From positions 95,975 to 159,974 of the forward strand of contig JAPLVC010000006.1 in NCBI GenBank assembly GCA_026397315.1: 64,000 nucleotides of DNA, given 5' to 3'. Both the position numbers and the translations under genes were made by a program. This document shows positions 56,613 through 56,781 of the stretch, piece after piece. The notes under the pieces were generated by a model. The model was given only the letters and a program-made list of their open reading frames with translations. It was not told where the DNA came from and did no database searches. This stretch comes from Candidatus Aenigmatarchaeota archaeon (GTDB lineage Archaea > Aenigmatarchaeota > Aenigmatarchaeia > QMZP01 > QMZT01). The stretch's first letter is position 1. Every line of letters begins with the position of its first letter.

Positions 56613-56636
56613 TTCGAATCCCTATCCCCGCATTAA
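56613..56636 (+). repeat. duplicate of tRNA-Leu 3' end (TTCGAATCCCTATCCCCGCATTAA), att-like direct repeat
   Basis: 22/24 identical to 55949-55972. Confidence 0.6.
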
Positions 56637-56666
56637 AGCCTTTTGGAAAAAGGCTTTATCGAAAAA
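56635..56666 (+). repeat. family-2 hairpin element, free-standing copy (AAAGCCTTTTGGAAAAAGGCTTTATCGAAAAA)
   Basis: 30-nt identity to the first 30 nt of the tRNA-Ser intron (61064-61097, opposite strand). Confidence 0.55.
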
Positions 56667-56781
56667 CGACGATGAGGTTTGGCGAAAACGACGGGCGGAT
56701 TTGCGAAAGCCGGTTTTCCGCGGCCGCTTTTTCCAAAAGGGCCCTTTTCGCGTTTTTAAAGCGGTTTTTCAACTTTAAAAC

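Follow-up and report, generated by a model that had tools for sequence, protein, structure and literature searches.

Genes and repeats at the locus

We examined a short hairpin-forming element at position 56635 in a 64,000-nucleotide stretch of DNA from a Candidatus Aenigmatarchaeota archaeon (contig JAPLVC010000006.1, positions 95,975 to 159,974 of the forward strand; hereafter the window, in whose coordinates positions are given). The element lies downstream of a tRNA-Leu(CAA) gene on the plus strand (55851-55969, reported by Rfam and ARAGORN) that has a 35-nt intron in its anticodon region, and it precedes a gene for an 83-aa protein whose ATG is at 56782. Both genes belong to a conserved order that runs from a 98-aa gene through tRNA-Gly, a ≈180-aa gene, tRNA-Leu, the 83-aa gene, topoisomerase I (57085-59289), and a RadB-like gene to tRNA-Ser. 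The topoisomerase is 100% identical to a protein from a metagenome-assembled genome of Candidatus Aenigmarchaeota, whereas an exact-sequence look-up of the RadB-like protein gave no record. The tRNA-Ser(GGA) gene at the far end (60981-61130, minus strand) is interrupted at position 37/38 by a 68-nt intron (61027-61094). Rfam recognizes it as a tRNA (48 bits) with a 70-nt insertion, ARAGORN finds it with the 68-nt intron when introns are allowed, and removal of the intron restores a cloverleaf. For comparison we used a strain with 94% DNA identity to the window (L003) and syntenic relatives characterized by the identity of their topoisomerase: L017-19 (85%), L020 and L153 (81% each), L021-23 (77%), L154 (74%), and L155 (72%).

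The element is one half of an exact inverted repeat. In the 64-kb window, a repeat finder pairs 56635-56666 (plus strand) with 61065-61096 (minus strand) over 32 nt at 100% complementarity, and a pattern search allowing up to three mismatches returns these two sites as the sole matches. None of 100 dinucleotide shuffles of the window yielded any match to the repeat (chance expectation 0). A first-pass annotation, made from the sequence alone, had stated that the start of the tRNA-Ser intron is identical to 56635-56666; the identity extends over 32 of 32 positions, and the common sequence comprises exon nucleotides A36-A37 of tRNA-Ser followed by intron bases 1-30. This sequence folds as a 10-bp hairpin, AAAGCCUUUU-GGA-AAAAGGCUUU, followed by AUCGAAAAAC, with a free energy of −11.4 kcal/mol (z −3.84). 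In a scan for GCCTTTTGGAAAAAGGCTTT of a genome collection that does not include the source genome, we obtained 13 single matches in unrelated bacteria and one match within a coding region of an Altiarchaeota metagenome-assembled genome.

Two Logan contigs of one sample end precisely at the repeat copies (L001 at 56664; L002 corresponds to 56637-61094), which fits a true repeat that exceeds the k-mer length of 31. The orientation shown in the window is backed by the gene order in five relatives and by the intact tRNA-Ser gene. Recombination between the two copies would invert 56637-61094 and split tRNA-Ser.

A family of hairpin modules in tRNA introns and trailers

Both copies of the repeat belong to a larger family, whose common unit (the module) is ≈33 nt long and consists of an A/T-rich hairpin of 9-10 bp followed by a tail of the form NA[GT][CT]RRAAA(A)C. 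A regular expression followed by a covariance model (R1; 33 positions, nine base pairs) identifies six strong copies in the window. The first-pass annotation had likened the hairpin at 56635 to a separate "family 1," and the two do fall within this one module family. The family-2 copies are the intergenic one (56635-56668, plus strand; hairpin at 56635-56657, AAAGCCTTTT-GGA-AAAAGGCTTT, tail ATCGAAAAACG; 52.7 bits, E = 3.9e-08) and the one at the 5′ end of the tRNA-Ser intron (61063-61096, minus strand; 49.5 bits), where the foot of the hairpin takes in exon A36-A37 and the intron itself begins at 61094.

Four further copies are of family 1. Two of them are associated with tRNA-Pro(CGG) (gene 15590-15749, minus strand): one lies in its 3′ trailer, 2 nt past the discriminator base (15555-15587, minus strand; 50.8 bits), and the other, found by the regular expression and R1, starts at base 1 of its 85-nt D-loop intron (module 15698-15732, intron 15648-15732, minus strand), the boundaries of which were set by comparison with an uninterrupted D-loop in the metagenomic locus L105. 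A third copy (27298-27332, plus strand) is an orphan that opens a ≈100-nt copy of the tRNA-Pro intron with 9 nt of exon 2. This unit (27298-27400, plus strand) starts at intron base 1, includes the exon 2 part AATGGTTTA, and has no 5′ exon, and the sequence directly upstream is AT-rich and TATA-like; the unit could represent either a transcribed leader or a fragment of a scattered tRNA. The fourth (36808-36840, plus strand; regular expression and R1) lies within a disrupted tRNA-like gene (36760-36894, plus strand), where it starts just past the anticodon; this gene has matching acceptor halves, the start of a D-arm, a T-arm, and at least two insertions. Neither Rfam nor ARAGORN reports this gene, and a brute-force search with two introns leaves its identity ambiguous between Thr-GGU and Pro-UGG. 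The trailer of tRNA-Gly in the window (55179-55225) has no hairpin but does contain the family-1 tail AAGCAGAAAACG ≈35 nt past the tRNA end; unlike this window ortholog, the tRNA-Gly trailer of L017 has a full module.

Across the window, L003, L017, and L021, R1 gives 13 strong matches (E ≤ 8e-4). All 13 are in the sense orientation with respect to the host RNA, and 11 start either at intron base 1 or 2-3 nt past a tRNA 3′ end. The stem is paired in 96.8% of alignment cells, and two positions show double-sided changes from C-G to U-A. The covariation score of the stem is 0.167, compared with 0.087 in shuffles, and 0 of 500 shuffles reach it. A stem variant of the form AACC..GGTT occurs in L155 and L153. 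The first-pass annotation had named further copies as the test of its proposal, and such copies are present in the window, in relatives, and in metagenomes.

Searches against known RNA families returned no counterpart. At gathering and permissive thresholds, Rfam found no match to the module in the window and in 20 metagenome loci, reporting only tRNAs and one rRNA operon. Reading the 33-nt modules of both families, we saw neither C/D motifs (RUGAUGA, CUGA) nor a k-turn motif (sheared G-A pairs beside a 3-nt bulge). At E ≤ 5, an Rfam search of 55000-61500 (family 1 being covered only at 36700-36950) gave no C/D or k-turn family at the two family-2 copies; a SNORD51 match (E = 3.5) at 56165-56213 lies away from the modules. 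The first-pass suggestion that L7Ae might bind the element at a k-turn thus has neither a motif nor, within 55000-61500, an Rfam family at the family-2 copies to build on.

The hairpin behind tRNA-Leu

In L003 and L017, the intact 3′ end of tRNA-Leu (...CCCCCGCA) is followed by TT and then, without interruption, by the hairpin. In the window, an insert of 663 bp (55974-56636, including the right copy of a direct repeat) lies between tRNA-Leu and the module. The left copy of the repeat (55950-55973, plus strand, 24 nt) consists of the tRNA-Leu 3′ end and TTAA, and bases 1-33 of L003 match here at 100%. The right copy (56613-56636, plus strand, 22 of 24 positions identical) is a non-functional relic of the 3′ end of tRNA-Leu, with a T-arm that, when drawn by hand, is unable to pair; bases 10-63 of L003 match 56613-56666, and the last two bases of the repeat overlap the first two of the module hairpin (56635-56636). 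The segment between the repeats (55974-56612, plus strand) has a low GC content (0.41), a single ORF, and no counterpart at this site in relatives, and the site is empty in L003, L017, and L021. The ORF (56007-56588, plus strand) encodes a 193-aa protein with a metallo-β-lactamase fold (Pfam Lactamase_B, E = 6e-15); it is the sole ORF of the 663-bp insert, in which no integrase or recombinase gene was found. The Pfam list for the 193-aa protein also includes a weak match to Anti-Pycsar Apyc1.

Because L003 and L017 join the end of tRNA-Leu directly to the hairpin, the copy at 56635 is the native 3′ trailer of tRNA-Leu, moved downstream by the 663-bp insertion, instead of a free-standing element. 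The first-pass annotation correctly placed the intergenic copy directly after an att-like repeat of tRNA-Leu, which is the 24-nt duplicate of its 3′ end; its account of the element as free and without exons is superseded by the uninterrupted trailers of L003 and L017. With directly repeated sequence of the tRNA end on either side and with L003 and L017 lacking the insert, the 24-nt repeats and the intervening DNA are the trace of an insertion at the 3′ end of a tRNA, resembling archaeal integrative elements. Because the window tRNA-Leu is now without an adjacent module and several relatives never had one, comparison of the genomes suggests that tRNA-Leu does not need the trailer copy to form its 3′ end.

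The other intron of this gene behaves differently from the module-led ones. The anticodon-region intron of tRNA-Leu (55880-55916) is near-invariant in the window, L017, L020, L021, L153, and L154 (GGTCTTGAACTCTGATTCAAGATGATGTCGAC), whereas the module-led introns vary. It has CUGA in a hairpin loop with AUGAUG right behind it, which resemble D and C boxes, respectively. The tRNA-Leu gene of L155 has no intron in the anticodon region.

Distribution of the module in relatives

In the relatives, the module recurs at orthologous sites in a patchy fashion. It opens the tRNA-Ser intron in L017, L021, L153 (as two modules in tandem), and L155, and in L020 the tRNA-Ser intron retains just a remnant of the 3′ arm. 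A D-loop intron of tRNA-Leu is present in four genomes, module-led in L021, L153, and L155 and reduced to a minimal arm-loop-arm form in L154. The tRNA-Leu trailer module is found in three of eight genomes (present in the window, L003, and L017; absent in L020, L021, L153, L154, and L155). In L017, the trailers of both tRNA-Leu and tRNA-Gly carry modules, the latter in this genome alone, and a further copy at 19799 lies right behind the stop codon of a MoxR-type gene.

The tRNA genes of L153, L154, and L155 have up to three introns each, in the D-loop, the anticodon region, and the variable or T region. In L153, tRNA-Leu occupies 4793-5016 and the tRNA-Ser region 8290-8790 (minus strand), and a diverged module opens a T-loop intron. 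Standard tRNA finders fail on these multi-intron genes or call them incorrectly.

The hairpin at the intron splice sites

Comparison of uninterrupted tRNA-Leu D-loops (window and L017) with interrupted ones (L021, L153, L154, and L155) fixes the boundaries of the introns, and in each D-loop intron compared, the first base of the module is base 1 of the intron. Five D-loop introns, namely those of tRNA-Leu in L021, L153, L154, and L155 and that of tRNA-Pro in the window, can be drawn by hand as canonical bulge-helix-bulge (BHB) motifs. In these drawings, exon GCCA (or GUAG) forms a helix with UGGY (or CUGC) located just before the last two intron bases, a 3-nt bulge stands at each splice site, and the 5′ arm of the module makes the outer helix together with a duplicate 3′ arm located where the intron ends. 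For the tRNA-Pro intron, RNAfold favors a long-range pairing of the arms over 11 bp. The L154 intron consists of an arm, a 14-nt loop, an arm, and then UGGCAU, with no tail. Because this intron is merely arm-loop-arm, we infer that the hairpin is the closing helix of the intron; on the same predicted structures, the longer introns look like expansions of it.

In the minimum free energy (MFE) fold of the tRNA-Ser precursor, the cloverleaf is accompanied by a CUGG/CCAG helix of 4 bp and, at the 3′ splice site, by a bulge of 3 nt; the 5′ splice site lies in a three-way junction at the base of the module hairpin. The predicted 5′ splice motif is therefore at best a relaxed one, which is plausible for the broad-specificity endonucleases of DPANN archaea. 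Splicing endonucleases with broad specificity have been reported from this group (PMC5829648).

Copies in metagenomes

A metagenome scan with a degenerate pattern gave at least 120 loci, the flanks of which were read by eye. Among the matches listed, module-led introns occur in the D-loop (L096 and L124), in the anticodon region (L031, L064, L081, L105, and L113), and in the T-loop (L025 and L082), and modules lie in the trailers of L041, L052, L053, and L103 (the last in tandem). Five of these loci (L025, L064, L082, L096, and L105) have AAGCYCTTTTCARGAAAGRGCTTAAGCRGAAAGGAGC in common. Splicing the candidate introns out with ARAGORN, again among the matches listed, gave 12 tRNA-embedded and three trailer cases, counts to be read as approximate as the classifier is too permissive for exactness. 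One listed match (L035, 640-669, minus strand) places a module in the spacer between archaeal 16S and 23S rRNA genes, likewise a region that RNA processing removes.

Most of the matches listed lie outside DPANN-like tRNA contexts. Approximately 35 of the listed loci are Methanosarcina-like (GC ≈0.41, with archaeal Mre11/Rad50 in L032 and tandem intergenic arrays), and ≈20, with a GC content of ≈0.6 and with genes for LepA and EF-G in L143, are Clostridia-like. The units in both groups (e.g., L073, L084, L100, and L032 for the former; L080, L085, L125, and L143 for the latter) have the form AAGCYTTTT-loop-AAAARGCTTGAGCRAAAAC, and their stems are complementary although the search pattern did not demand pairing. 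Some Methanosarcina-like arrays also contain CCTTTTGAGAAAAGGTTTTATCGAAAAC, which is very near to family 2 of the window. These units have no tRNA nearby, their flanking genes are ordinary, and their orientation is weakly antisense to the neighbors; they may reflect common descent, transfer, or convergence. BLAST searches of plasmids with the Clostridia-like and Methanosarcina-like repeat contexts gave no match, and a scan of viral contigs with the degenerate pattern gave nine matches, mostly chance ones that do not form a hairpin.

Proposed exchange of the module within genomes

Copies of the module within a genome are more alike than orthologous copies across genomes. In L021, the tRNA-Ser intron and the tRNA-Leu D-loop intron have identical loops (ACCC) and similar A-rich tails that lead into CCAG, with ≈40 nt in common. 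In the window, the tRNA-Ser intron and the tRNA-Leu trailer are identical at 32 of 32 positions, with the loop GGA. L017 has three slightly differing copies, and orthologous tRNA-Ser introns differ between genomes. With moderate confidence, we favor the view that the element at 56635 is one copy of a family of hairpin-led BHB introns and trailers in Aenigmarchaeota that is exchanged within the genome, the hairpin acting as a 5′ splice-site helix. In BHB introns of the D-loop, the anticodon loop, and the T-loop, the initial ≈33 bases would come from the unit, and the hairpin, or its 5′ arm with a distal copy of the 3′ arm, would provide the helix beside the bulge of the 5′ splice site. The archaeal splicing endonuclease requires such a helix. 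Because the helix would travel with the intron, the intron would depend only weakly on the sequence of the host tRNA, and what the host would have to offer is four bases near the 3′ end of the intron that pair with the exon. Gene conversion or recombination at the DNA level would exchange copies or place new ones inside one genome, and the 32/32 identity of the tRNA-Ser intron and the tRNA-Leu trailer would follow from this. The proposal of the first-pass annotation that 5′ modules of introns are copied between sites fits the six copies, the patchy occupation of orthologous sites, and the loop and tail held in common within a genome. Overall, the module looks like a copy-prone building block of introns rather than a small RNA gene.

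Several observations weigh against this interpretation. A distal 3′-arm copy is missing from the tRNA-Ser intron, whose 5′ splice site sits in a three-way junction rather than a clean bulge; in the MFE fold, all three A's of that would-be bulge are base-paired. The BHB motifs of the D-loop introns are hand-drawn, RNAfold does not return them as such, and the RNA-level roles proposed here are read from predicted structures. A role as splice-site helix leaves the conserved A-rich tail unexplained, as it does the precise placement 2-3 nt behind tRNAs, the copy in the rRNA spacer, and the copy at 19799 in L017. We saw neither a target-site duplication nor a consistent target sequence at the copies examined, and the copying mechanism is one that we infer. 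The near-identical hairpin-plus-tail units in Methanosarcina-like and Clostridia-like contigs that lack a nearby tRNA are likewise unaccounted for. Finally, the strict sense orientation and the flush placement could fit a cis-acting RNA signal equally well.

Such a signal is a serious, although less probable, alternative. The module would then act 3′ of a finished tRNA or rRNA segment, as a landing site for processing, chaperone, or decay factors, as a hairpin that protects the 5′ end of the excised intron or trailer, or in pausing or termination, and its copies would be alike through selection by one trans-acting partner instead of through copying. The 13 of 13 sense orientations, the 11 of 13 positions at intron base 1 or just past a tRNA 3′ end, the copy in the 16S-23S spacer, and the covarying stem would all be expected of it. 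It would also accommodate a tail that is conserved with no evident role in pairing, and a loop and tail that are common within each genome, as for co-evolution with a partner. However, orthologous sites are patchily occupied even in close relatives, tRNA-Leu of the window has lost its adjacent module, tRNA-Gly has one in L017 alone, and the minimal intron of L154 has no tail. A terminator in particular is disfavored by an A/T-rich stem that is followed by A's instead of U's, by a terminator scan that was silent, and by the truncation of tRNA transcripts that would result within introns. Nor do the modules show a k-turn or C/D motif on reading, and Rfam is silent at the two family-2 copies within 55000-61500. 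We also considered a processing stem formed between leader and trailer around the tRNAs with trailer modules and rejected it, as leader-trailer pairing is no better than in shuffles.

We consider it improbable, although of interest for what it would imply, that the hairpin plus tail is a self-contained, self-complementary "intron seed" that moves among tRNA introns, tRNA and rRNA flanks, other loci, and perhaps, in view of the near-identical units in Methanosarcina-like and Clostridia-like contigs, cohabiting anaerobes, and that the inverted 32-nt pair represents the state of tRNA-Ser before splitting. If so, two RNAs that each carry the self-complementary unit could pair in trans. A single recombination between the inverted copies, which lie 4.4 kb apart, would yield 5′ and 3′ halves of tRNA-Ser with a module on each, a concrete path from intron-containing to split tRNA genes.

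Also unlikely is a hairpin that is mobile at the DNA level, either as a repetitive extragenic palindrome (REP) or palindrome-associated transposable element (PATE) moved by a Y1 transposase or as a MITE (miniature inverted-repeat transposable element), that lands in single-stranded or hairpin-prone DNA such as tRNA genes and produces introns as a by-product. The module is short, palindromic, and multi-copy, some of its copies being tandem or inverted; hosts that differ greatly contain near-identical units, and the relative L153 has a gene for an IS200-type Y1 transposase. The copies, however, have no target-site duplication and are preceded by varying bases (T, A, G, and C), and their strict sense orientation with tRNAs is unexpected for a DNA transposon. 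Among 91 genes flanking copies of the GAGCRAAAA type, 179 Pfam families are represented, none of them in more than two genes, with no enrichment of transposases or integrases. The L153 gene itself (IS200/IS605-type Y1 transposase at 168-596, within 1-660) is flanked by the GC-rich hairpins GCGGGGAGCGCATTCTGCCCCGC and AGCCCCCGCATTTATGCGGGGGAGG. With these hairpins unlike the module and no enrichment of mobile elements among the 91 flanking genes, we found no link to an IS200/IS605-type transposase in L153 or in this set of genes.

Comparison with known systems

Returning to a hairpin-led intron and trailer family that is exchanged within genomes, a close known parallel is found in the transposed introns of Thermoproteales, in which near-identical introns occupy varied positions of non-orthologous tRNAs (Fujishima 2010, Mol Biol Evol 27:2233, as summarized in PMC4090602). 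The Thermoproteales introns resemble those studied here in their D-loop, anticodon-loop, and T-loop sites, in BHB-type splicing, as predicted for the introns here, and in a patchiness that implies recent gain. They differ in that our host is a DPANN archaeon and the common part is mainly a 33-nt 5′ module instead of the entire intron; this module is also present in tRNA 3′ trailers, in an rRNA spacer, and at a few sites away from tRNAs. In family 1, non-orthologous tRNAs contain similar intron sequence, namely the tRNA-Pro D-loop intron and the Thr/Pro-like anticodon intron. Whole-intron similarity is absent from the family-2 pair, in which identity ends after 32 nt and the partner is a trailer, and longer stretches are found only in family 1. 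With this locus, the phenomenon of transposed tRNA introns reaches into a DPANN lineage, and the unit concerned is a sub-intron module found in trailers as well.

The insert at tRNA-Leu recalls the disruption of tRNA genes by integration at att sites of the SSV/pNOB8 type (Sugahara et al. 2012, PMC3293823). As in that system, tRNA-end repeats (55950-55973 and 56613-56636) bound the insert, the tRNA is reconstituted, and a fragment with the old flank is left behind. In contrast, the insert has no integrase or recombinase and only a single ORF of metallo-β-lactamase fold, and no intron was gained, the trailer being merely separated from its tRNA. There is also a resemblance to the split tRNA genes of Nanoarchaeum equitans (Randau 2005, as summarized in PMC4090602) and of Caldivirga and Desulfurococcales (Chan 2011, PMC3218864), in that intron-type sequence stands beside a tRNA piece with no other exon (the 27298 orphan and the trailer) and intron-like sequence is common to separate loci. 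Unlike in those genomes, we found no functional pair of half-genes, tRNA-Ser is intact, and the 27298 orphan has no recognizable 3′ half.

Similar to REP palindromes, bacterial interspersed mosaic elements (BIMEs), and MITEs, the module is short, multi-copy, hairpin-forming, intergenic, and at times tandem or inverted. It is set apart from them by copies that are tied in sense to tRNA exon ends, by the lack of target-site duplications, and by our finding no link to REP-associated tyrosine transposases (RAYT) or other Y1 enzymes in L153 or among the 91 flanking genes. With intrinsic terminators it has in common a stem-loop right behind a gene; unlike them, it has two or three G-C pairs among 9-10, is followed by A's instead of U's, and also occurs inside introns, and the terminator scan does not report it.

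These comparisons touch on two open questions, namely the gain of introns at many positions of archaeal tRNA genes and the origin of split tRNA genes. Evidence to date comes mainly from the similar introns of Thermoproteales and one population study of Caldiarchaeum. Here, a small hairpin module, seemingly the 5′ splice-site helix, appears to be what is copied, rather than a whole intron. A single window holds a tRNA 3′-end insertion with an empty site in a sister strain, an orphan intron copy, and an inverted repeat capable of splitting a tRNA gene. The module family also explains why standard tRNA finders miss genes here and why assemblies with k = 31 break at these sites.

The region between the hairpin and the 83-aa gene

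The ≈110 nt downstream of the intergenic copy had been described in the first-pass annotation as alternating GC clusters and T-runs that might form a small RNA or a multi-hairpin terminator. The GC-cluster and T-run strings are indeed present at 56667-56780. The structural reading did not survive, with folding at shuffle level, no Rfam match, and a sequence deleted or replaced in the 94% strain. In 56667-56781, the plus-strand fold has z = +0.44, 132 of 200 shuffles being equally good, and the minus strand has z = −1.36. An Rfam search at E ≤ 5 over 55000-61500 found nothing at 56667-56780. Terminator-like sites number two, compared with 1.2 in shuffles, and one of them (56711-56726) is followed by CTTTTTCC. 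The interval is also rich in indels, as its middle part is deleted in L003, different in L017, and absent in L021 and L020.

Aligned with relatives, the region divides into three parts. The first (56669-56711, plus strand) is a variable spacer, missing in L003 and different in L017, that contains tail-like GCGAAAAC/GCGAAAG motifs; sites of the form GCGRAAAV occur three times within 56682-56751, compared with ≈0.06 expected from the window-wide rate. The second (56712-56744, minus strand), found by the repeat finder, is a degenerate inverted module composed of GGGCCCTTTTGGAAAAAGCGGCC and GCGGAAAACC. It equals the family-2 hairpin over its central 14 nt, it is partly kept in L017 and L003, and its matches to R1 are weak (E = 4.4 in the window and E = 0.35 at the L017 counterpart). 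The third (56753-56781, plus strand) is conserved and is the probable promoter region of the 83-aa gene, with a TATA-like TTTTTAAAG 29 nt before the ATG at 56782. The block TTTTTAAAGCGGTTTTTCAA..TAAAACATG is conserved in the window, L003, L017, L020, and L021; from the spacing of archaeal TATA elements, it would correspond to the TATA region of the 83-aa gene, the mRNA of which is probably leaderless. The downstream region is thus best read as a decayed inverted copy of the module, tail-like debris, and the promoter of the next gene, apparently not as a structured RNA.

For the whole interval of 146 nt (56635-56780), an identity as a small RNA gene or as a multi-hairpin terminator of the upstream gene is accordingly very improbable and close to refuted. 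The interval does lie in the space between two successive genes, and it does contain several short inverted repeats together with the terminator-like site at 56711-56726; set against these are the folding, Rfam, and terminator values given above, its loss or replacement in L003, L017, L021, and L020, and the assignment of its last 30 nt to the TATA region of the next gene. For 56667-56780 in particular, we rejected both versions, as the sequence folds like its shuffles, is unconserved, and has terminator sites at shuffle level. An origin of the shared 32 nt in chance, low complexity, or a chimeric assembly join merits next to no credence and is refuted by independent contigs: the sequence is A/T-rich and palindromic and short-read contigs end at both copies, but 0 of 100 shuffles match, the junction of the tRNA-Leu end with the hairpin recurs independently in L003 and L017 and that of the tRNA-Ser exon with the hairpin in L017, five relatives keep the gene order on either side, and the alternative orientation would break tRNA-Ser.

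A 15-nt near-repeat, CTTTAAAACATGAGC (56773-56787) and CTTTTAAACATGAGC (57053-57067), coincides with or slightly precedes the starts of two neighboring genes and probably reflects similarity between their promoters or start regions.

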